This document shows, piece after piece, positions 30,397 through 46,621 of a stretch of 61,433 nt of DNA; positions within the stretch are counted from its first letter, which is position 1, and every line of letters begins with the position of its first letter. This stretch comes from Pseudomonadota bacterium. GTDB taxonomy: Bacteria > Desulfobacterota > Desulfobacteria > Desulfobacterales > JBDRRP01. A model generated the notes under the pieces. That model made no database searches. It had not been told where the DNA came from and saw nothing but the letters and a program-made list of their open reading frames with translations. The position numbers and the translations under genes are program-made. Location of the stretch: the NCBI GenBank assembly GCA_043825735.1, contig JBDRRP010000068.1, forward strand, positions 124,001 through 185,433, written 5' to 3'.

Positions 30397-31251
30397 ATGA
30401 CGACCGTTTATCGTAACTGGACCAAGGAGCAGCTTGACGCCCAGTACAACAATCGGGCGCGGGTGCCGGATTTCCAGCGGTTTTTGGGCGAGTGGACCGC
30501 CCGCAGCACCCGATGTTATGAAACGGCGACCGTTCACAGAAACATTGCCTACGGCGGGCATCCCCGGGAGCGGTTGGACGTGTTTCCGGCAGCGAAGGCC
30601 GGCGCGCCGGTCCACGTGTTTTTCCACGGCGGATACTGGCAGTCCCTGTCAAAGGACATGTTCGCTTTCATCGCCGCCCCCTATGTCGCCGCCGGGGTCA
30701 CCACCGTCATGGTGAACTACCCCCTGGCCCCGGACGACGTCATGGACCGCATCATCGCCGCCTGCCGCAGCGCAGTGGCCTGGGTGGCCCGGGAGATCCA
30801 CGCCTTCGGCGGCGATCCGGACAATATCGTGGTGAGCGGTCACAGCGCCGGCGGTCACATCGCGGCCATGCTCATGGCCGCCGACTGGGTGCCGCTGCCC
30901 GCCGATGTCATCAAGGGCGCGGTGAGCGTCAGCGGCCTATTCGATTTGGAGCCCATTCGATTGTGTTATCTCAACGCCGTGCTGGGCATGGATGCTGAAA
31001 CGGCCCGGCAAAACAGCCCGGTTCACCGGAACCCCCGGGTTGTCTGTCCCCTGGTGCTCGCAGTGGGGGAAAAAGAATCAGAAGCCTACCACAGCCAGAC
31101 CAGCAACATGGCTACCGCCTGGCATGACACGGGCGTCGACGTGACCACGCTCACCGTGCCGGCGTCCAATCATTTTTCCATTCTGGACAGTCTGGCCGAT
31201 CCAACGGGGGTGGTGTTTCGGCAGGTGATGCGGCTAATCCCAGGGGTTTAA
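30397..31251 (+). CDS. Alpha/beta hydrolase, arylformamidase-like
   Basis: LDAQYNNRARVP, FFHGGYWQ, GHSAGGH, NHFSI. Confidence 0.85.
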   Translation: MTTVYRNWTKEQLDAQYNNRARVPDFQRFLGEWTARSTRCYETATVHRNIAYGGHPRERLDVFPAAKAGAPVHVFFHGGYWQSLSKDMFAFIAAPYVAAGVTTVMVNYPLAPDDVMDRIIAACRSAVAWVAREIHAFGGDPDNIVVSGHSAGGHIAAMLMAADWVPLPADVIKGAVSVSGLFDLEPIRLCYLNAVLGMDAETARQNSPVHRNPRVVCPLVLAVGEKESEAYHSQTSNMATAWHDTGVDVTTLTVPASNHFSILDSLADPTGVVFRQVMRLIPGV

Positions 31252-31653
31252 TAGGGCGGCGCCGCTGGCGGCCATGTCCCGGACGTTTCGGGTGACGACC
31301 GTCATGCCGTGGACCATGGCAATGGCGGCGACAAGGCTGTCAATGGCTGGCATTTTGTTTCCAGTGCGCTCCGCCGCAGCCTGAATATCTCCCCATTTTT
31401 GGGCAACTTCAAAATCGACCCCGAGGATCCGCTGTTTGAATCGCTGGTATAGCTCATGATCGAGCCAGCTTTGGAGAGACGCCTTCTTAGGGGAATCAGG
31501 TAGCAGCGAAATGCCTTTTTGAATTTCACCGATGGTAATCGCACTCAGAAACAATATTTCTTCCGGCTGATCTTTAAGCCATGCCACAACCTTTGCGGAA
31601 GGTTTGGGGCGGGTCAGCTCCGAAATGACGCAGGTGTCCAGAAGGTAATTCAA
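31234..31653 (-). CDS. vapC: PIN-domain toxin
   Basis: YLLDTCVISE, SAITIGEI, DSLVAAIA, VVTRNVRD. Confidence 0.92.
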   Translation of the reverse strand: MNYLLDTCVISELTRPKPSAKVVAWLKDQPEEILFLSAITIGEIQKGISLLPDSPKKASLQSWLDHELYQRFKQRILGVDFEVAQKWGDIQAAAERTGNKMPAIDSLVAAIAMVHGMTVVTRNVRDMAASGAALLNPWD

Positions 31654-36990: not shown

Positions 36991-37290
36991 GGTATAAGGT
37001 ATAAGGTACAGGGTACAGGGTACACGATAAAACCAACACGTTTTCCTTTTTTGCTTTTGGCCTAACAGCGCATCAGCTATGCTACGACCGCAGGCCGCCC
37101 TATCCTGTTGATCCTGTAAATCCTGTCAAATATCTTTGCAGTTGCTTTTGCGGCGAAGCCGCCCGCCCTTATCTGCGAAAATCTGCGTTAATCCGCGTCC
37201 CATTCTGCAGTTCGCAGTTGCATTTGCTGTCGTCTGCCATCTGCAACCTGTCCTGCATAGCCGCAGGCGAAGCGGGATCTGTCCTCCGGC
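36991..37290 (-). repeat. Modular repeat array D (reverse orientation) plus heptamer run
   Basis: ggtataa/ggtacag heptamers; on minus strand aactgc..cgcggattaacgcagattttcgcagat..ggcggcttcgccg..aactgc..acaggatttacaggatcaacaggat..gggcggcctgcgg. Confidence 0.75.
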
Positions 37291-37379
37291 CCCACCGGCG
37301 TTGACAAGCTCACCGGCGTTAACTATTGCCTCTACATCCCCAAACCGATTCCCGGTTGTTGGCAGAAAGAGGCCAGGAT

Positions 37380-38093
37380 ATGCCCAAAGCAACCCGGCTG
37401 TACTATCTCGACAATCTCAAGGTTTTGCTCATCATCCTGGTGACCATGCATCATGTCGGGCAGGCCTACGGGACGACCGGCGGCGGGTGGTTTTATTCAT
37501 ACCCGGGCGATCGCGTAAAGCCGCTGGAGTTCTTTTTTGCCTTCAATGCCTCGTTTTTCATGCGGCAATCGTGGGGGTTTCCGATCGACCGATGGATCAG
37601 CTTCCTCGGATTCATCCAGATGGAACCGGCCCACTTTCCCCAGTACCTGTCTCTTTTTATTTTTGGTGCGCTTGCCTGCAGATGGTCCTATCTGGATTCA
37701 ATCACCACGCCCCGGAACACCCTCTGGCTCCTGCCCGGTGTGGGTGTTTTCATCGTCACGGTGATACAACGCTATACCACTGGTCATAATCAGGCCTTCT
37801 TTCTGTGGCCGTATCGTGAGGCGCTGCTCTGCACCGGCGTCTGCATCGGGTTGCTCGCGCTTTTCAAAACTTTTTTCGACCGCACCGCCCGTATCCTGCA
37901 GCTACTATCGGAAAATGCATTCGGGGCTTACGTCCTGCACGTCCCGGTGGTCGTTGCGCTCCAGTACGCCTTCGATCCGGTCCATGCGGGCGCCTTTACG
38001 CTGTTCGTCATCGTCTCTGCGCTGTCGGTACCCGGATCGTTCCTGGCGGCGATCCTTGCGAGGCGTATCCCCGGGGTGAAGCGGGTTCTATGA
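37380..38093 (+). pseudogene. Acyltransferase-3 family gene copy with in-frame 420-nt internal deletion
   Basis: Near-identical to 44518..45651 but lacks the equivalent of 44701-45120; junction at tcatg microhomology (37558-37562). Confidence 0.85.
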
Positions 38094-38170
38094 TAACACC
38101 GGAGCGCTGGCACCAAAGAAACGGGAATTGAAATTACGGAGGCTTCCCGAAGGCCCCTGAGCGCAACTAC

Positions 38171-38252
38171 CCAGGGCGCGCAAAGCCCCAGCTTGGCATT
38201 ATTGGGTTCCATTTTGCCTCCACTTGCCGAGCTGGGGCTCGGCGTTCCCTGG
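38171..38252. repeat. REP-like inverted repeat at island left edge
   Basis: ccagggcgcgcaaagccccagcttggca / tgccgagctggggctcggcgttccctgg. Confidence 0.7.
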
Positions 38253-38646
38253 TTCATGGACATCAATTGTCTTGCAGTTTTGTAATTGATTCTGCGGCAT
38301 GCAAAATAGCCACTAAAACCTGCAGTTGACATGATCGTTGGCTTTAAGTATGGACTATCGATGCCCACAGTCTTTTATAGCAGCCATTGAACAATCCTAT
38401 CTCACCTTCTCTTGTCGGGCGGCGGACAATTTACACATTGATTAGCGACGGATTCATGCATCAGCAGCCGTCAGGAAAAGGTCAACACTGATATGTTGAT
38501 GGCCTGTTGAAGAAAAGCATGTGCGGCGGATAGCGCTTTGGTACAAGCTCAAAACAGGTAAGCCAATGATGAGAGATTGAAATTCTATGGGGTGTCTACA
38601 AGTTTCCGTGCTTATAGGCGAGCGAGGGGCGTAGTTACCTCTATAT

Positions 38647-38668
38647 CGAATAGGCCTATTCGTACAAT
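38647..38668 (+). promoter_or_regulatory. Perfect 16-bp palindrome abutting a -10-like box upstream of TIR gene
   Basis: cgaataggcctattcg (38647-38662) then TACAAT (38663-38668), then aaggag RBS; no good -35. Confidence 0.55.
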
Positions 38669-38687
38669 AAAATAAGGAGACGATAAG

Positions 38688-39179
38688 ATGGTAAAAGACA
38701 AAGTAAAGAATGTTTTTATAAGTCATCATCATAAAGATGATGCACATGTAGATAAATTAACAAAATTGCTACATAGCAAAGATTATCATATAAGAAATAG
38801 TTCAATTAGGGCGAAACCGACAAACCAGAAACGACTAGATAAAGGGCTTGTGAAAGATGCAACAATTAAACGCCTTTTAAGGATGAAAATTTCATGGGCA
38901 GGATCAGTTATAGTACTAGTAGGGAAAGAAACACATAAGCGTCCTTGGGTTGATTGGGAGATAACACAAGCACATAAACAAGGAAAAACAATTGTTGGCG
39001 TTTATGAATATGGGCTCAAAGAAAAAGTTGAGCTCCCAAAGTCATTAGAAAAGTATCAAACAGCTCAAGTGGGATGGGATTCTCAAAAAATAATTGATGC
39101 TATTGAAGGGAGATCTGTTTTTGAATATCCTGGCGGTAGCCCCTATACAAGAAAGGATGCGGGCCATTATAAATGTTAG
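38688..39179 (+). CDS. TIR-like domain protein (MTH538/ThsB-like)
   Basis: NVFISHHHKD, VIVLVGKETHKRPWVDWEI with catalytic Glu, GKTIVGV. Confidence 0.88.
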   Translation: MVKDKVKNVFISHHHKDDAHVDKLTKLLHSKDYHIRNSSIRAKPTNQKRLDKGLVKDATIKRLLRMKISWAGSVIVLVGKETHKRPWVDWEITQAHKQGKTIVGVYEYGLKEKVELPKSLEKYQTAQVGWDSQKIIDAIEGRSVFEYPGGSPYTRKDAGHYKC

Positions 39180-39835
39180 CAGTTCCTATCAGATATCTGT
39201 TTATTTATGTCGTTGACAGAGACTTTGGATTCGCTCCAAATCCTTTTCATGCTTATTGTACCTTGGCTACATGTAAGGCAAGACTTCGGAATAGCGCGAA
39301 TGTAGGCGATTGGATCCTGGGCGTGGGTGGTTCTCGGTTGAATGCTACAGGGAAGTGTATATATTTAATGAAAGTGACAGAAATATTGACCTTTGATGAA
39401 TATTGGAGCGATAGTCGATTTAGATTGAAAAGGCCAATAAGGAATGGAAGCCTTGTAATGTTGGTTGGTGATAATATTTACCATCAAAACTGTAAAAATA
39501 AATCATGGATTCAAGAGGACTCACACCATAGCAATCCAGATGGCTCAATGAACCTTACTAACTTAAATAGAGATACCAGCTCTCACAAAGTTTTGATATC
39601 GTCTTTTTTCCTCTATTTTGGGTCCTCAGCACCAATCATCGACTTGAATTCAATAGGATATTCAAACGGTATAGGCTACTCAAAAAAACCACTTACAGAT
39701 AATCGAATTGAAAGTTTTATCACTGGTATTTTAAATGAATATAGAGAAGAAATAAATACTGTAATTGCAGATCCATTCAATTTTGAAATTGCATATTCTC
39801 GTGTAGATCAGGGATCTGGTCGTATACATAAATAG
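39173..39835 (+). CDS. Nmad2-like (nucleotide modification associated domain 2) protein
   Basis: YVVDRDFGFAPNPFHAYCTLATCK..VGDWILG..GDNIY..SHHS; 7-nt overlap with TIR gene. Confidence 0.8.
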   Translation: MLAVPIRYLFIYVVDRDFGFAPNPFHAYCTLATCKARLRNSANVGDWILGVGGSRLNATGKCIYLMKVTEILTFDEYWSDSRFRLKRPIRNGSLVMLVGDNIYHQNCKNKSWIQEDSHHSNPDGSMNLTNLNRDTSSHKVLISSFFLYFGSSAPIIDLNSIGYSNGIGYSKKPLTDNRIESFITGILNEYREEINTVIADPFNFEIAYSRVDQGSGRIHK

Positions 39836-39867
39836 AAAAGTATAATGTTAAAATTAGGGGGAGAATA

Positions 39868-40401
39868 ATGGCGGTCATCACAAAGGGTAACTTTTCAATA
39901 AATCTTGGCATATTCAAAGTAGGTGGTGATTTTTCGGATGAAGACCGCCAATGTGCATGGGAGCTATATACTGAAATTATAACGCGACTATCTGTTCATG
40001 GAAGAATAACTCCATCGGCTAACATTTTTGATGAATTTAAAGGTGAATTGTTTAATGAAAGTCTCTCGTCTCTGTATGCATTTTTTAAAGAAATGCGCGG
40101 TATTATGAGGAAATTCCCTGTTGGTAAAATTGAATGCGCAAATGAATACCATTTGGGGAAATTGACTTGTTCAATTATGAATGATGTACTAAGGCCTTTC
40201 CTAGAAAAATGGCAAGGTAAATATAGATACTGGTTTGATATTGAAGCTAGGAAAAATCCTGAAAGATCGCCCTTTGAAGTCCAGATGGAGTTCCCACATC
40301 TTGAAGATTTCATGACTGATTGGTCAAACTTAAGAGAACTAATGAGATCTGTAGCTGAGTCTTTAGCTAAGGAATATCAATTAGTGCAGTCAATTAGTTA
40401 G
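39868..40401 (+). CDS. Conserved-looking helical hypothetical protein
   Basis: ggggag RBS; AWELYTEIITR, ESLSSLY, LRPFLEKW patterns; same operon as TIR-Nmad2. Confidence 0.75.
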   Translation: MAVITKGNFSINLGIFKVGGDFSDEDRQCAWELYTEIITRLSVHGRITPSANIFDEFKGELFNESLSSLYAFFKEMRGIMRKFPVGKIECANEYHLGKLTCSIMNDVLRPFLEKWQGKYRYWFDIEARKNPERSPFEVQMEFPHLEDFMTDWSNLRELMRSVAESLAKEYQLVQSIS

Positions 40402-40753
40402 TTCCAGTTAGACGAATATGGTCAATCATACCGAGCCGTAGTTGTTGTAACTACTGCCACCATTATTCTATCTATAGCGCAATTGTGACATGAAAAGATT
40501 GTTTATAAAATTTTACTAATTTTTTTCTAACTCTCTTGAATTACAACAGATCTTTCAAAGGATTCTCATAGAACGGACCACATCTCTTAATGGTGAATTC
40601 TTTATAGCAAATGCCTTTAAAGGAAACTCTATAGATTTGGAAAGGACTTGTTGCGCTTAGTCGCGATAGATGATATCCAGGTTTCTACTTTACTACGAAT
40701 AATAGTGTATAATTAGATAATGCTTACTATATTGGAAGGATATAGAAAACTAA

Positions 40754-41494
40754 ATGCTTAATGTAGAATCTTCATCGGCATACCCTGTGAACGATGGAAA
40801 CGGTATTAAAGCCAATACGGTAAATATATATAAAATCAATTACTCCACTACTACTGGCAAGACTTACCCCATCGAAATTGGCATTGCTAAAAGATTGAAA
40901 GAAACCGTCCCAGTAAACAAAATTAAAACTACTGAAGCTTGTATAAAAGGCTGCAAGTTATTCGGGAGAAATGGAGGATGCCCCCCCTTTTCTCCTGAGT
41001 TTAGTTCGCTCCATGGAAATAACATCTTAATTCTTTACGCCAAAATGAAAACCATTGATTTTCCAGAAAAAGTTATCCATGGTCCTTATTATTCAAGATG
41101 GGTTTTTGTTGAAACCTTTATGACGCCGTTGACAAACAGGTTGGGGAAATTTATCGCAGCGCAATTAGATGGATACTTTTTAAGTTCTGGGCATTGCAGT
41201 ACTTGCAGGCCAAAGAAGTGTAGTGTAAAGCTCGGCAATAACTGTTGTGACCCAAAGCACCGAACCTATTCTTTAGAGTCTACAGGTGTAATTGTTACGG
41301 AGTTGGTTGAAAAAGTATTCGGAATTGAACTAGAATGGTGGGATCCAAAAAACAATAAAATAATACCCAATCATATGATGAAAATAGTTGGTGTTCTTGT
41401 AAAGAACGAATTTAGCTTAGAAGCAATCAATACGATTGTGCGAGAAGCAATTCGTGCTGACAAAAGAATAGTTCAAGATTCAATCTTTGAATAA
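40754..41494 (+). CDS. DUF2284-like Cys-rich metal-binding protein
   Basis: ACIKGCKLFGRNGGCPPFSP, GHCSTC..C..CCDP..RTYSLESTG. Confidence 0.72.
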   Translation: MLNVESSSAYPVNDGNGIKANTVNIYKINYSTTTGKTYPIEIGIAKRLKETVPVNKIKTTEACIKGCKLFGRNGGCPPFSPEFSSLHGNNILILYAKMKTIDFPEKVIHGPYYSRWVFVETFMTPLTNRLGKFIAAQLDGYFLSSGHCSTCRPKKCSVKLGNNCCDPKHRTYSLESTGVIVTELVEKVFGIELEWWDPKNNKIIPNHMMKIVGVLVKNEFSLEAINTIVREAIRADKRIVQDSIFE

Positions 41495-42946
41495 AAAGGT
41501 CTCAACAGGTTCTTCTTTTCCATTAACCTTGATGTCTATATGGTTTGTCTTGTTTATATGGTTAAATTCAAAAATTTTCTTTTCTGTACTGTCTTCGATG
41601 GCAGTCATTTGAAATGAGAATTTAAAGTCTCGTCTGCTTGCATCTAGCGCTCCTCTAAGCCATTTAACCCATTTCTTGCAAATCGATTTAAAGAGTTTCT
41701 CAGTTTGTTTAAAAAGTTCCGGCTCCTCTTCTTCACCTTGCTCCTTATTTTCATTTTTAATAGTGAACGCATATTCGGTATTTCTCTTTACCCTGAATTT
41801 GATCTTGATTAAGTCGTCTCGGTATAGCGGCAAGAGCGGTTCAATATTAAGGTCTTTACCTCCCCCTTTAAGCTCTTGAAAATTTGGTCTTTTCCAAATC
41901 TGCAACTCATCAGCTATTATTAGCAAAAATGGAAGTGATGTATGAAAAATATGGTAGATATCAGTGCAAGTGTGGCTAGCAATAGCTCTTAGTATTTCCC
42001 TTCTAATATAGAATTGCCTAGCGTCTTCAGTCTCACTGAATGGCTTTTTGGAATCGAGGTCTGATTCAAGGAAATATACAAGATTTTTCATTAAAAGAAT
42101 ACATGAGATTATGCCGTGATTTAAATTCTCTAGAGACTTTGAAAATTTTAGATAATATTTTGATTGCCTCGCAGTAATATAATTGTAATTGATTTGTATT
42201 CTTTTGTTTGCCCCTAATCCTCTTGGGCTCCTGTTATCTCTTGCATATATCAATTTAGAGCTTATGAATTCAAGGATGAAATCATTAATAAAAAAATGAT
42301 GCGTCGGTATCTGATACTGACTGAATTGCGACGGGCTCCCAAAATGCCTCATCATTTCATTTATTTTGCTAAGTATCTTATCATTTTTATCGAGAGGATA
42401 ACCCAAGTCATGCGTCAAAGCGATTATGCACCACATCGCCTCAATTTCAGGTTTTTTTATTTCAAGACCGCGGTTAATATTTAATAGCTCTTCGTAATCC
42501 CAATGAACCTTGTAATCAATTTTATTAAGTAAAAAGCAACCAATTAGCCATACCCGAAAAACATGCGCGACATGGTCTCTATAAAACTGATCAGCTCCAT
42601 AAAGAAAGCCCTCAAACTCCTGGTACTCTATAAAGTATTTATACAACTCATTGACACCAAAAGCTATTTTATCTCGCTTCCAATTTTTCGGTTTTGATGC
42701 ATATTCTCTTTTGTCTATTTTCTTTAGATAGGTAATCGCATCTCTTAACAAATCGACCCATATATAATTGTGCTCTTGAAATGCACTTGCAACGATATTT
42801 CCAGAATCTTTTTTACTTTGAACCAGTAAGCGTAACAAGGTATCTTTTGTTTTCTCGACAAGAAATAAAGGCAAACCACTCCGATTATTAAAACCGTTTT
42901 CTCTAACTAACAATTCGTCATTTAAGACATCATTAGGTGGTGGCAT
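41480..42946 (-). CDS. HD-superfamily metal-dependent phosphohydrolase
   Basis: YRDHVAHVFRV, LTHDLGYP, NHG, AIASH, IADELQ give the complete H..HD..H..H..D set. Confidence 0.8.
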   Translation of the reverse strand: MPPPNDVLNDELLVRENGFNNRSGLPLFLVEKTKDTLLRLLVQSKKDSGNIVASAFQEHNYIWVDLLRDAITYLKKIDKREYASKPKNWKRDKIAFGVNELYKYFIEYQEFEGFLYGADQFYRDHVAHVFRVWLIGCFLLNKIDYKVHWDYEELLNINRGLEIKKPEIEAMWCIIALTHDLGYPLDKNDKILSKINEMMRHFGSPSQFSQYQIPTHHFFINDFILEFISSKLIYARDNRSPRGLGANKRIQINYNYITARQSKYYLKFSKSLENLNHGIISCILLMKNLVYFLESDLDSKKPFSETEDARQFYIRREILRAIASHTCTDIYHIFHTSLPFLLIIADELQIWKRPNFQELKGGGKDLNIEPLLPLYRDDLIKIKFRVKRNTEYAFTIKNENKEQGEEEEPELFKQTEKLFKSICKKWVKWLRGALDASRRDFKFSFQMTAIEDSTEKKIFEFNHINKTNHIDIKVNGKEEPVETFLFKD

Positions 42947-42966
42947 AACGGTAGCAATATAGGTAT

Positions 42967-43986
42967 TTAACTGATAAGCTTTTTAATGCAGCTTGGATCT
43001 CTAATTACATTAAATTTGTCACTGGATAGTATTCGTTGTGCGATGCAACCGCTTTTACATAATCCAAAGTACTCACATTTTATACAGACATTCGGATATT
43101 CTTTATTCTGAACTAGTTTAAAAAGCGAAGCATTTTCAATTATTGATTTAAGTGAGTCGCTATATATGTTGTTATTTGTGTTGTATGATTTGACCTGTTT
43201 CAAAGCATCGCATGGGTATGCATATCCATTTGGATCGATTATTAGTTTGTCTCTACCAGTAGTACAAGGTGTAGCGTTGCCCAGTATTAGAAAGTTAAAT
43301 GGCGAACCAGTTCTGATAACCAGGTTTGCGTAGCATTCCCGCAGTTTATTAATTAACTTTCTAAGGACTACGTAATCCGCTTTGTCTGGAGTGAGTCTAT
43401 CTGAGGAATCAATACCTCTACCTTGCGGGACAAATCTTAGAATGCTTAGTTGTTTGACCCCAATTGAGGAGATGAATTCTGTGAGGTTTTTAAGTTCATT
43501 CAATAGAGGCTTTAATACTACAAAATGCACCTCAGTATATATGCCTGCCAAAACTGCCGATTTTATTGCAGCAACTGTAGCGCAAAAACTACCTTTAACT
43601 CTAGTAATCCTATCATGAATATTTGGTTTTGATGAATATAAACTAAATACTAAGTGCGTTACTCCTGATTCATACAAATCTTGAATTTTTTCTTCTGAAA
43701 TTGGAGTGGGTGGATTAAGTGAGACAATTCCACTAGTATAAACTTTAATAATTGAGTCTTTTTGGCTAACCTTTCTAATGTGCTTGGAAATATTTTTGAT
43801 TAATAATGGTTCTCCTCCAGAGAAATAGAAATGATTGCAACCCAATTCAGCAGCTTCAAACAAAAGTCTTTCTATAAGCTCATCGGAAAAAGTTGTGTTC
43901 AAATTGATGCCAGCTTCTGTAGAGCAATGAACACAATTTAGTAAGCAATGATTGGTGATCTCTATTTTTAGCTCATTGAGGCGCAT
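42967..43986 (-). CDS. Radical SAM protein with SPASM domain
   Basis: EITNHCLLNCVHC, SGGEP, CTTG..IDPNG..YPC, CIKC-x5-CKSGC. Confidence 0.9.
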   Translation of the reverse strand: MRLNELKIEITNHCLLNCVHCSTEAGINLNTTFSDELIERLLFEAAELGCNHFYFSGGEPLLIKNISKHIRKVSQKDSIIKVYTSGIVSLNPPTPISEEKIQDLYESGVTHLVFSLYSSKPNIHDRITRVKGSFCATVAAIKSAVLAGIYTEVHFVVLKPLLNELKNLTEFISSIGVKQLSILRFVPQGRGIDSSDRLTPDKADYVVLRKLINKLRECYANLVIRTGSPFNFLILGNATPCTTGRDKLIIDPNGYAYPCDALKQVKSYNTNNNIYSDSLKSIIENASLFKLVQNKEYPNVCIKCEYFGLCKSGCIAQRILSSDKFNVIRDPSCIKKLIS

Positions 43987-44032
43987 TTTCTTAGTCAAAG
44001 CGCAACATATTGTAGGGAGGGTGGTTAAGAGG

Positions 44033-44061
44033 ACAATATATAGGTCTATAAACCTTGTCAA
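44033..44061 (-). promoter_or_regulatory. Sigma70-type promoter of rSAM-HD operon with palindromic spacer
   Basis: TTGACA(44061-44056)-N17-TATTGT(44038-44033); spacer contains aggtttatagacct. Confidence 0.7.
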
Positions 44062-44142
44062 CAAAAACAAAGTGAGGCGGTCCTACACACCCAAAGCCCT
44101 GGAACATATTAATTAAGAAACAGGGGGGTGGTTAAGACCGCC
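44062..44142 (-). other. Long bulged hairpin followed by U-rich tract (terminator or small RNA)
   Basis: ggcggtc/gaccgcc, caccc/gggtg, ccctg/caggg nested pairings; tttgtttttg follows on minus strand. Confidence 0.45.
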
Positions 44143-44517
44143 CTTAGAATTTCATTTCCCTGAAAATTGGGTGCCAACCATGCTATCTAATTAATATCAA
44201 ACGAATAATACCGCTTATGCCTGCTTTGATATCGCTTCCAAAACATACCTTATTGTGGGTAAAATGGCTGGTGCAAGAAATAAACCTTTAAAGGCCGGCA
44301 AAACACCTATCGCTTACCGTGAAGATGATTCGCGCCCCATTCCGCAGTTCGTCGCTTCAGTTGCTGTCGTCTACCACCTGTCCTGCATAGTCGCAGGCGG
44401 AGCGGGATCTCCCCTCTGTCTTCTGGCCCTCACCGGCGTTGACAAGCTCACCGGCGTTCACTATTGCCTCTACATCCCCACACCGATTCCCGGTTGTTGG
44501 CAGAAAGAGGCCAGGAT

Positions 44518-45651
44518 ATGCCCAAAGCAACCCGGCTGTACTATCTCGACAATCTCAAGGTGTTCCTCATCATCCTGGTGATCATGCATCATGTCGGGCA
44601 GGCCTACGGGGCGACCGGCGGCGGATGGTTTTATTCATATCCGGGCGAGCGGGCAAAGCCGCTGGAGTTCTTCTTCGCCTTCAATGCGTCGTTCTTCATG
44701 GGGCTGTTCTTCTTCATATCCGGCTATTTCTATCCCCAGTCCTTCGATCGCCACGGTGCCGGCAAATTTTTGAAAGACAAATGCATCCGTTTCGGCATTC
44801 CGCTGGTCTTCGTCTGTTTTCTCGTGACCCCGCTGCTGGAATACGTAAAATACGTGCATTACGTCCACGAGATCGGTTTCCCGGAATTTTATGGGCGAAT
44901 ATGGCAAAAATACGGCCTTCGCATCGTGTACCCCGGTGGTTTCAATTTTGCCCATTTGTGGTTTGTCGAACATCTGCTCGTCTACGCGATGGCCTATGCC
45001 GCCATCCGGTCGGTGCTGCCGACACGTGTAGCACCACCAGCCGTCGCAACCGCCGTAAAAGCGAGATGGTACGTCATCATCGCCTATATTTTGCTCCTCG
45101 GGATGATCACCGCCCTCATGCGGCAATCGTGGGGGTTTCCCATCGACCGATGGATCAGCTTCCTCGGATTCATCCAGATGGAACCGGCTCACTTTCCCCA
45201 GTACCTGTCTCTTTTTATTTTTGGTGCGCTTGCCTGCAGATGGTCCTATCTGGATTCAATCACCACGCCCCGGGATATCCTCTGGCTCCTGCCCGGCGTG
45301 GGTGTTTTCGTCGTCACGGTGATACAACGCTATACCGCTGATCATAATCAGGCCTTCTTTCTGTGGCCGTATCGTGAGGCGCTGCTCTGTACCGGCGTCT
45401 GCATCGGGCTGCTTGCGCTTTTCAAAACTTTTTTCGACCGCACCGATCGTATTATGCAGAAACTCTCGGAAAATGCATTCGGGGCCTACATCCTGCACGT
45501 TCCGGTGGTCGTTGCGCTCCAGTACGCTTTTGATCCGGTACAAGCCGGCGCCTTTACGCTGTTCGTCATCGTTTCCGCGCTGTCGATACCCGGATCGTTT
45601 CTGGTGGCGACCCTTGCGCGGCGTATCCCGGGAGTAAAGCGGGTTTTATGA
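44518..45651 (+). CDS. Acyltransferase-3 (OpgC/MdoC-like) membrane protein
   Basis: RLYYLDNLK..VIMHH, FFMGLFFFISGYF, HLWFV, AYILH; multiple TM segments. Confidence 0.88.
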   Translation: MPKATRLYYLDNLKVFLIILVIMHHVGQAYGATGGGWFYSYPGERAKPLEFFFAFNASFFMGLFFFISGYFYPQSFDRHGAGKFLKDKCIRFGIPLVFVCFLVTPLLEYVKYVHYVHEIGFPEFYGRIWQKYGLRIVYPGGFNFAHLWFVEHLLVYAMAYAAIRSVLPTRVAPPAVATAVKARWYVIIAYILLLGMITALMRQSWGFPIDRWISFLGFIQMEPAHFPQYLSLFIFGALACRWSYLDSITTPRDILWLLPGVGVFVVTVIQRYTADHNQAFFLWPYREALLCTGVCIGLLALFKTFFDRTDRIMQKLSENAFGAYILHVPVVVALQYAFDPVQAGAFTLFVIVSALSIPGSFLVATLARRIPGVKRVL

Positions 45652-46456: not shown

Positions 46457-46621
46457 ATCGAAATCGGGATCGCTATCGAAATCGAAACGCCATGGCCGTC
46501 ATGGCCGGGACCATGGTGGCATCCGCGTCCTGTTGACAGGCGTCTAAAATAATACACAGTAATGGTTGACGGCCTGACGGCGCAAATCGATTTCGATCCC
46601 GATAGCGATTTCGAACCCGAT
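46457..46621. repeat. Inverted ATCG hexamer-period repeat pair
   Basis: atcgaaatcgggatcgctatcgaaatcga facing tcgatttcgatcccgatagcgatttcga. Confidence 0.8.

Follow-up and report, generated by a model that had tools for sequence, protein, structure and literature searches.

Positions 38688-43986 of a 61,433-nucleotide (nt) stretch of DNA from a Desulfobacterales bacterium (contig JBDRRP010000068.1; the whole stretch is referred to below as the window) hold six genes that arrived as one horizontally acquired block of low GC content. Their protein families belong to a mix-and-match network in which a pyrimidine-nucleotide front end is joined to a set of TIR, Nmad2 and unk177 genes, where unk177 denotes an unnamed protein of 177 amino acids (aa). 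The front end is drawn either from thymidylate-synthase (TS)-like, dUTPase-like, kinase and HMUDK genes, or from a radical SAM gene with HD, uracil-DNA glycosylase (UDG) and DUF2284 genes. The TIR-Nmad2 core belongs to a known and validated kind of anti-phage system, DS-4, whereas the radical SAM-HD-DUF2284 module and unk177 are without description in the literature searched (bioRxiv supplements lay outside it). The most parsimonious reading of the island is an anti-phage role centred on nucleotides. We tentatively propose, with slightly more doubt than confidence, that it constitutes one composite, horizontally acquired anti-phage unit of the DS-4-related, nucleotide-modifying kind.

Gene content of the island

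TIR gene, 38688-39179, + strand: 163 aa; ThsB-like TIR or nucleoside-deoxyribosyltransferase-like protein with a putative catalytic Glu91 in a WVDWEI motif.
Nmad2 gene, 39173-39835, + strand: 220 aa.
unk177 gene, 39868-40401, + strand: 177 aa; no Pfam family.
DUF2284 gene, 40754-41494, + strand: 246 aa; Cys-rich, predicted metal-binding protein.
HD-type gene, 41480-42946, - strand: 488 aa; predicted divergent HD-superfamily metal-dependent hydrolase, phosphodiesterase (PDE)-like, with a C-terminal beta/alpha domain.
Radical SAM/SPASM gene, 42967-43986, - strand: 339 aa from the ATG; first gene of the radical SAM-HD pair.

According to the list of open reading frames (ORFs) and their translations, all six genes are intact and lie in two convergent arms, which share 15 nt (41480-41494) where the DUF2284 ORF runs into the HD ORF. 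GC content is 0.34-0.37 in 1-kb bins from 39001 to 44000 and 0.50-0.65 in nearly all other bins, and averages ~35% for the island against ~57% for the rest of the window. This layout is as given in a preliminary description of the same DNA, and Pfam bears out the TIR, Nmad2, DUF2284 and radical SAM/SPASM assignments made there as well as the unknown status of the 177-aa protein. The TIR and Nmad2 genes overlap by 7 nt, and 352 nt separate unk177 from the DUF2284 gene. At its longest, the radical SAM ORF starts with a TTG at 44070; a natural fusion protein described below (P0024) begins at the equivalent of the ATG. As had been anticipated, PADLOC recognised no complete known system among the six genes, only ThsB for the TIR protein and, weakly, pVip for the radical SAM protein.

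Relationship to DS-4

DS-4 ('NTTI') is a five-gene E. coli system from the DefensePredictor study (Science 2026), where it is marked as defensive and replicated (PMC13092281). It encodes a thymidylate synthase (361 aa), a dNMP kinase (185 aa), HMUDK_hel (340 aa), a TIR protein (163 aa) and Nmad2 (220 aa), of which the kinase and the thymidylate synthase are named as newly validated domains. The DS-4 TIR protein was flagged as ThsB_Global and had as its best HHpred template 4JEM, an N-glycosidase acting on CMP and hydroxymethyl-CMP (PMC13092281). Lambda is the sole DS-4 row of the plaque table, with a -log efficiency of plating of 0.93 and smaller plaques.

The TIR and Nmad2 proteins of the window equal those of DS-4 in length (163 and 220 aa), in the 7-nt overlap of their genes and in the WV.WEI motif, a likeness that was judged by lengths and overlap from the coordinates of Table S8 and by the motif. 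In addition, relatives of the window HD protein and of unk177 stand inside DS-4-like rows of other genomes. In contrast, DS-4 as described has no radical SAM, HD, DUF2284 or unk177 gene, all of which are present in the island. The preliminary description had called the gene combination a candidate undescribed system; this no longer applies to the TIR and Nmad2 genes, which correspond to the tail of DS-4 (PMC13092281), but the six-gene architecture is new. Our literature searches on Nmad2, on DUF2284, on radical SAM with HD and anti-phage, and on 5-hmdU kinase found the gene set described only through DefensePredictor. Burroughs 2015 and Iyer 2013 probably predicted parts of this gene network.

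Co-occurrence of the six families

A scan of one genome per species yielded 78 loci with relatives of the window HD protein, distributed over Bacillota, Bacteroidota, Nitrospirota, Thermodesulfobacteriota, Myxococcota, Lentisphaerota, Pseudomonadota, Cloacimonadota and Asgard archaea. The hosts are mostly gut and sediment anaerobes, and the module resides in short mobile islands. We searched these loci by tblastn with the six window proteins; flanks reached at most 8 kb and several contigs were short, so the resulting counts are lower bounds. Radical SAM relatives lie beside the HD gene at 64 of the 78 loci and DUF2284 relatives at 39; TIR was found at 16, Nmad2 at 15 and unk177 at seven. The families thus named recur together in at least seven phyla.

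This combination is not a product of chance. In a sample of 400 further genomes from the phylum of the host, eight contain Nmad2 (as distant members in unrelated contexts) and three a strong HD relative (E<1e-10); at such base rates about 0.01 chance adjacencies of Nmad2 and HD are estimated for the 78 loci, compared with 15 observed. Neither was the association with TIR inherited once. On a quick IQ-TREE tree of 75 HD rows (the window and 74 of the 78 loci, four having been dropped for an HD ORF below 330 aa) it requires at least nine gains or losses, and it spans at least seven phyla; it has therefore been gained or lost repeatedly.

Six loci carry both arms in one co-directional, tightly packed row: L004, L047, L057, L064, the viral contig L160 and a plasmid of Parabacteroides distasonis (NZ_OY725812). 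The row of the viral contig runs TIR, Nmad2, HMUDK, radical SAM and HD. On the plasmid, an integrase gene adjoins a run of overlapping or abutting TIR, Nmad2, kinase, radical SAM and HD genes; the plasmid annotation lists Nmad2 and HD as 'hypothetical' and the kinase as 'nucleotide kinase'. L004 is the one locus with all six families, to which a TIR-SLOG gene is added. The nearest relative of the window HD protein, from L001 (50% identity, sister with support 100), belongs to a radical SAM-HD pair followed by a convergent, overlapping DUF2284 gene and then a TIR gene, and L058 likewise has a convergent DUF2284 gene as in the window.

At five further loci (L038, L063, L066, L067 and L068) the HD gene directly precedes TIR-Nmad2 with no radical SAM gene, which indicates that HD itself belongs to DS-4-like rows. 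The row of L063, L066 and L068 is HMUDK-TS-Nmad1-HD-TIR-Nmad2; L067 has the same row cut at the contig start, and L038 lacks Nmad1. At L049, a kinase gene and a TS-like gene sit between HD and TIR-Nmad2.

All ORFs within 6 kb of the HD gene at the 78 loci were also clustered into neighbour families. These included an M78 peptidase with a fused chagasin-like domain (9 loci), TS-like proteins (8 loci, plus 5 of a second type), DUF6471 (7 loci), MerR (6 loci), TIR-SLOG and TIR_2 (5 loci each), Nmad1/DUF1599 (4 loci) and UDG (3 loci); none of the classical defence families was as frequent in this clustering as TIR, Nmad2 and unk177. Three gene orders recur: M78, TS-like, HMUDK, radical SAM, HD; HMUDK, TS-like, Nmad1, HD, TIR, Nmad2, without radical SAM; and regulator, radical SAM, HD, DUF2284. 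A radical SAM-UDG-HD order is found in L002 and L005, with UDG-HD in the cut contig L051. The M78 (IrrE/ImmA-like) peptidase with its chagasin-type inhibitor domain heads several operons of HMUDK, radical SAM and HD genes, for example in L036, L037, L042, L062 and L070, and may be a self-inhibited proteolytic switch that controls the system. In L072 (11322-14284; Thermodesulfovibrionales), the Nmad2 gene is apparently split in two by a 720-aa ORF, which may be an insertion element or intron.

The HD-type protein

The HD family is large, with at least 1427 homologues. The window protein had no Pfam family at E<=0.1, its best NCBIfam match was just 0.049 (to dGTP triphosphohydrolase), and a 23-sequence profile found no relative among PDB sequences. 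Across 92 HD-type sequences, H125, H128, H179-D180, H277, E294, H325 and D346 are invariant. The H/HD/H/H/D residues among them correspond to the extended set of ligands seen in di-metal HD enzymes. An AlphaFold (AF2) model of the protein (pLDDT 88, pTM 0.92) gave no Foldseek match; with VIA-align, run against 48,161 chains, HD/PDE-class enzymes account for most of the 50 matches listed. The best of these is PDE4D (Z 9.7, root-mean-square deviation (rmsd) 4.7, 237 aligned residues), and others include YhaM (Z 8.6), PPX/GppA (8.6), YqeK (7.2) and SAMHD1 (7.1). The 'HD' assignment of the preliminary description thus stands on the invariant residues and on fold likeness, while Pfam lends it no support, and we accept the 488-aa protein as a predicted divergent HD-superfamily hydrolase.

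Model residues 409-488 (window 41483-41722, - strand) align to the PUR repeat of Pur-alpha with Z 5.6 and rmsd 2.7 over 74 residues, and this likeness of the C-terminal beta/alpha part is a weak hint of nucleic-acid binding. The plasmid collection contained one match to the HD protein.

The radical SAM/SPASM and DUF2284 proteins

The radical SAM protein matches Pfam Radical_SAM (PF04055, 7.2e-18) and SPASM (PF13186, 1.7e-6) above the cut-offs. Its translation contains the CxxxCxxC cluster motif (C14, C18, C21) and seven C-terminal Cys residues. All its NCBIfam matches fall below cut-off, the best being NirJ2 (1.7e-31); the nearest solved structures are PqqE (3.8e-11) followed by BlsE (3e-9), and the pVip hidden Markov models (HMMs) of PADLOC match weakly (1.3e-14 and 2.4e-11). 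A physical link to the HD protein is provided by P0024, a natural radical SAM-HD fusion of 783 aa. The DUF2284 protein matches its Pfam family at 3.7e-17 and found no relative among PDB sequences.

These matches raise the question of whether the enzyme matures peptides or proteins, either in a RiPP-like manner (for ribosomally synthesised and post-translationally modified peptides) or in cofactor maturation, with the HD and DUF2284 proteins as its substrates or helpers and TIR, Nmad2 and unk177 as unrelated neighbours. The SPASM domain with its seven Cys residues would suit such a role, as would the best NCBIfam and PDB likeness, which is to PqqE, MftC, NirJ/AhbD and sactipeptide maturases. 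However, these family matches lie far under the cut-offs, and beside the radical SAM gene no small precursor peptide gene is supported, the only candidates being unsupported ORFs of 22-54 aa. The recurrent neighbours are also nucleotide enzymes (HMUDK, TS-like, UDG, TIR, Nmad1/2) rather than peptidases or transporters, and the fusion partner is a protein of phosphohydrolase fold. We consider a maturase very improbable.

TIR, Nmad2 and the TIR partner unk177

The TIR protein matches Pfam ThsB_TIR (3.5e-22) and the PADLOC ThsB model PDLC00418 (9.4e-56), and its PDB sequence matches are ThsB1 (9b7d) and a DUF1863 protein (6lhy). E91 is invariant in 35 aligned relatives. Nmad2 matches its Pfam family at 2.2e-64 and had no relative among PDB sequences; it has 5090 homologue clusters, and the Atlas returned Nmad2 clusters only. 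Invariant columns in 17 relatives (Cys34, His119, Asp, Asn and acidic residues) suggest a probable Cys/His enzyme. On viral contigs Nmad2 was seen in other contexts at 11 loci, three of them with TIR.

For unk177 no family was found in Pfam, PADLOC, NCBIfam or PHROG, although the protein is well conserved: 546 homologues show a mean column identity of 61%, with invariant blocks that include DRQCAWEL, IMRxFPVG and RPFLE. Its AF2 model (pLDDT 88) consists of an N-terminal beta-hairpin and a four-helix bundle. Foldseek found nothing in the PDB at E<=1e-3, and VIA-align gave generic four-helix-bundle matches only, with a best Z of 9.2. ClyA-family pore-forming toxins recur among these at Z 8-9, which is below a meaningful level for helical bundles, and were set aside. 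An identity with DUF6650, the domain of the validated DS-27, was not borne out: an Atlas feature score of 0.85 had given a lead only, PF20355 matched none of 45 members, and hhalign against five DUF6650 proteins returned a very low probability.

The genomic context of unk177 was sampled at 80 metagenome loci (L079-L158). A ThsB_TIR gene lies directly upstream of unk177 at 49 of these, and the gap is between -11 and +21 nt in 36 of the 49 pairs, which suggests coupled translation. A second ThsB-like gene, of TIR_2 type, is present at 20 of the 80 loci and Nmad2 stands between TIR and unk177 at eight; restriction-modification methylase, PIN and SNF2 genes also occur. In L111, L117, L143 and L157, unk177 ends a seven-gene row of TS-like, dCTP-deaminase/dUTPase-like, TMP-kinase-HMUDK fusion, TS-like, TIR, Nmad2 and unk177 genes, which is an extended DS-4. 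A prediction of the TIR-unk177 complex scored 0.00 and gave no answer, so it counts neither way.

A shorter row of two or three genes, consisting of ThsB_TIR and unk177 with or without a preceding TIR_2-type ThsB-like gene, is widespread alone (for example L116:7183-8528) and looks like a ThsA-less, Thoeris-like module with no model in PADLOC v2. In three proteins of 374-412 aa (P0372, P0374 and P0380), a C-terminal unk177 domain follows a REC-like N-terminal domain, a hint that the unk177 domain serves as an output or effector. This N-terminal domain has sub-threshold matches to Response_reg only; a TIR identity for it was not detectable by hhalign, again at very low probability. The plasmid collection held just two distant unk177 matches.

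One composite system or two

From the conserved residues, the fold class, the natural fusion and the recurrence of the gene set, we infer a scheme with two modules. Module A would comprise the radical SAM/SPASM enzyme and the HD-type hydrolase with the convergent DUF2284 iron-sulfur or metal protein, and module B would comprise the ThsB-like TIR, Nmad2 and unk177 in that order. The radical SAM enzyme would alter a nucleotide, with DUF2284 likely assisting it in a redox or cluster role; the probable target is a pyrimidine (deoxy)nucleotide, or else a base of uracil/thymine type within DNA. The di-metal HD hydrolase, as the obligate partner of this enzyme, would remove or rearrange phosphate, and so either supply a monophosphate substrate or process the product. 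The TIR protein may then cleave the N-glycosidic bond of the modified nucleotide or of NAD+; the catalytic Glu is kept, and HHpred matched the DS-4 counterpart to a CMP/hydroxymethyl-CMP N-glycosidase (PMC13092281). Nmad2, as a probable Cys/His enzyme, would perform a further step, and unk177 would act as regulatory or effector partner of TIR. The nucleotide pool would thereby be poisoned or depleted, or replicating DNA damaged, and phage replication would stop. Under this scheme the radical SAM-HD pair of the island would stand in for the TS-like, dNMP-kinase and 5-hmdU-kinase genes of DS-4.

We regard as unlikely a more specific version, in which the radical SAM/SPASM-HD pair and DUF2284 replace the TS/kinase front end of DS-4 and make a radical-derived, modified pyrimidine nucleotide or base new to immunity that TIR and Nmad2 process further, and in which, separately, unk177 represents a widespread class of TIR partners, Thoeris-like without ThsA.

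Several observations weigh against a single composite unit. Each module is mostly found without the other: at 54 of the 64 radical SAM-HD loci no TIR lies in the flank, and of the 80 unk177 loci, many of them on contigs below 3 kb, none has an HD relative and one has a radical SAM relative. No genome among the 400 of the phylum sample has both Nmad2 and a strong HD relative. The convergent arms of the window imply at least two transcription units. The TS-like, dNMP-kinase and 5-hmdU-kinase genes reported for DS-4 are all absent from the island, and tblastn found no remnants of them in the window. A TS-like gene is not among the six ORFs, and two TS-like representatives had no tblastn match in the window at E<=1; the genome has a single PF00303 (thymidylate-synthase-like) match, a weak one of 39.5 bits at a distance of ~95 kb. 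No PF18723 (HMUDK) match was found in the 6.8-Mb genome (100% complete), a search to which the control set was also silent and whose sensitivity is unproven, and tblastn with two HMUDK representatives gave chance-level matches only in the window. None of the six ORFs belongs to a kinase family, and a TMPK-HMUDK representative matched nothing in the window. The DS-4 phenotype is itself weak, about 8.5-fold on one phage, and the main text reports neither mutants nor a mechanism for it (PMC13092281). The HD-type protein has no Pfam HD match and its fold Z scores, all below 10, are moderate. Finally, SPASM enzymes act mostly on peptides, so a nucleotide substrate for the radical SAM protein is a guess. 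It is because the modules often stand alone, the arms converge, three DS-4 genes are missing and the DS-4 phenotype is weak that we hold the single composite unit as no firmer than a tentative proposal.

The same independence of the arms keeps alive the main rival, a possible, if doubtful, explanation by two self-sufficient systems, brought together by the mobile carriers they share and by selection for the stacking of defences. One would be Thoeris-like, with a TIR protein that senses infection and either generates a product from NAD or depletes NAD+, with unk177 as effector or regulator and Nmad2 as accessory; in the other, radical SAM, HD and DUF2284 would make or destroy a nucleotide, much as viperins or dNTPases do. 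TIR-unk177 pairs without radical SAM or HD at most unk177 loci are as this explanation predicts, as are radical SAM-HD(-DUF2284) modules alone at most Bacillota loci, the convergent arms, the nearest sequence likeness of the TIR protein to ThsB models and structures, and the phylum sample, in which no genome shares both modules. On the other hand, the six loci with both arms in one overlapping co-directional row, sometimes with a kinase between them, are hard to square with mere co-travel, and in L038, L063, L066, L067 and L068 HD precedes TIR-Nmad2 where no radical SAM gene is present. Other defence families co-occur less often, and the island has no ThsA-type gene to complete a Thoeris system.

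Comparison with other nucleotide-based systems

The island resembles Thoeris in its TIR protein, which matches ThsB Pfam and PADLOC models and ThsB structures and keeps the catalytic Glu, and two ThsB-like genes are common at loci related to that of the window. It differs in the fixed TIR partners, which here are Nmad2 and unk177. No ThsA, whether SIR2-SLOG or Macro-TM, was found among the six island ORFs with Pfam and PADLOC, in agreement with the absence stated in the preliminary description. The three SIR2_2 genes of the genome are all on other contigs, and STALD had no match in the genome, where the control set was silent too.

Prokaryotic viperins (pVip) offer a second parallel: the window pairs a radical SAM enzyme with a hydrolase of HD fold, their context suggests that they act on nucleotides, and the pVip HMMs match weakly. 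In contrast to pVip, the window enzyme carries SPASM and scores better, though below threshold, with SPASM maturases. The dGTPase/SAMHD1-type HD enzymes are nucleotide-pool defences, and SAMHD1 is among the fold matches of the HD-type protein (Z 7.1); the latter, however, has no Pfam or PDB sequence relative and is nearest in fold to PDE-type enzymes. Unlike either group, the radical SAM-HD pair of the window is an obligate module of two or three genes that also exists as a fusion.

A third parallel is with phage clusters for thymidine hypermodification, which include 5-HMUDK, aGPT-Pplase and a radical SAM isomerase (PMC8989533). Genes of HMUDK, TS-like hydroxymethylase-type and dUTPase-like kinds accompany relatives of the island, and both the island and these clusters have a radical SAM enzyme. 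The phage enzyme is spore-photoproduct-lyase-like rather than SPASM (PMC8989533), and the island has no HMUDK or aGPT-Pplase-type transferase and lies in a cellular, mobile-island context rather than in a phage genome.

This parallel leads to the suggestion that the genes are non-defence cargo of a mobile element, which would either hypermodify its own DNA against restriction or make a nucleoside/pyrimidine antimetabolite against competitors. Such cargo would explain the linkage of the relatives to HMUDK, TS-like, dCTP-deaminase/dUTPase-like and Nmad1 genes, which are known from phage DNA hypermodification (PMC8989533), the location of some Nmad2 genes on viral contigs, and the best HHpred template of the DS-4 TIR, the CMP/hmCMP hydrolase 4JEM (PMC13092281). 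BlsE, the second-best solved relative of the radical SAM protein, acts on a cytosine nucleoside. The mildiomycin, blasticidin and bacimethrin pathways combine TS-like, N-glycosidase and radical-SAM logic and provide a parallel for the antimetabolite version. We nonetheless judge cargo of this kind improbable. DS-4 by itself protected E. coli from lambda (PMC13092281); the island contains no HMUDK, TS-like, aGPT-Pplase-type transferase, phage structural or replication, transporter or resistance gene; and the module occurs mostly in anaerobe hosts, on short mobile islands rather than in biosynthetic clusters.

The island has consequences for DS-4, one of few validated systems built of thymidylate-synthase-, kinase-, TIR- and Nmad2-type enzymes. 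Together with its relatives, it places DS-4 within a much larger modular family in bacteria and Asgard archaea, with the radical-SAM/HD pair, uracil-DNA glycosylase, the Cys-rich DUF2284 protein and the conserved TIR partner as swappable parts. These natural swaps offer a way to resolve the chemistry, namely the identity of the nucleotide that is produced or broken down and the choice of TIR substrate between NAD+ and a nucleotide. The HD-type family (about 1400 relatives) and unk177 (about 550) are likely new immune components, and should the radical SAM protein make a new antiviral nucleotide, it would be the second such example after viperins. Bench work on the island is worthwhile, since it would open a way to the DS-4 mechanism and to two large uncharacterised protein families.

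Flanks and other features of the window

The extent of the acquired block was delimited by GC content and by alignment of its flanks.

38115-44327, no strand: foreign island, ~6.2 kb, between two acyltransferase copies.
37191-38093, + strand: left flanking repeat, an upstream region and an internally deleted (255 aa) Acyl_transf_3 gene copy (Pfam Acyl_transf_3, 2.1e-17).
44328-45651, + strand: right flanking repeat, an upstream region and a full-length (395 aa) Acyl_transf_3 gene (Pfam Acyl_transf_3, 1.4e-36).
44033-44061, - strand: best sigma-70-like promoter match in the island, TTGACA-17-TATTGT with 10 of 12 positions matched, just upstream of the radical SAM start; weak evidence.

The left repeat matches 44328-45415 as a direct repeat with 94-96% identity. 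In pairwise alignment, its acyltransferase copy has an in-frame internal deletion of ~420 nt, and the homology stops ~20 nt past the stop codon. Such repeats would be compatible with entry through one crossover at a copy of the gene that the incoming DNA carried, or with tandem duplication accompanied by insertion. No recombinase or integrase family was found by Pfam among the six island ORFs, no tRNA was found in the window, and PHROGs contributed nothing specific for the island proteins.

The preliminary description had allowed for a defence hotspot, which the surroundings do not bear out. The 29 larger flanking ORFs between 20 and 61 kb belong to housekeeping and signalling families of Pfam (histidine kinases, response regulators, hydrolases and others) and gave only generic, domain-level matches in PADLOC; the neighbourhood is therefore ordinary. 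A lone PIN-domain ORF 7 kb to the left of the island (31234-31653, - strand; Pfam 8.9e-12) is probably an unrelated toxin-antitoxin remnant.

Promoter and terminator scans of the island showed no excess of sites, with 17 found compared to 20.6 expected from shuffles, and next to none of the stretch was represented in two metatranscriptome runs of the same study. In run X1, the probable source, the contig that covers the island (37858-44511) has a depth of 13.8, whereas the flanking unique contigs have 21-24. The island could be missing from part of the population, or its low GC content could bias coverage; no contig bridging across the island was seen. Just left of the repeat, at 37100-37150, the summed depth rises to 131, with many loose-ended contigs in four runs that include other samples, and this segment probably represents a short repeat that is either multi-copy or shared widely. 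Outside the island on the right, an inverted repeat at 46458-46614 has 28-nt arms that are 86% complementary, lie 101 nt apart and consist of TCGAAATCGA-like units.

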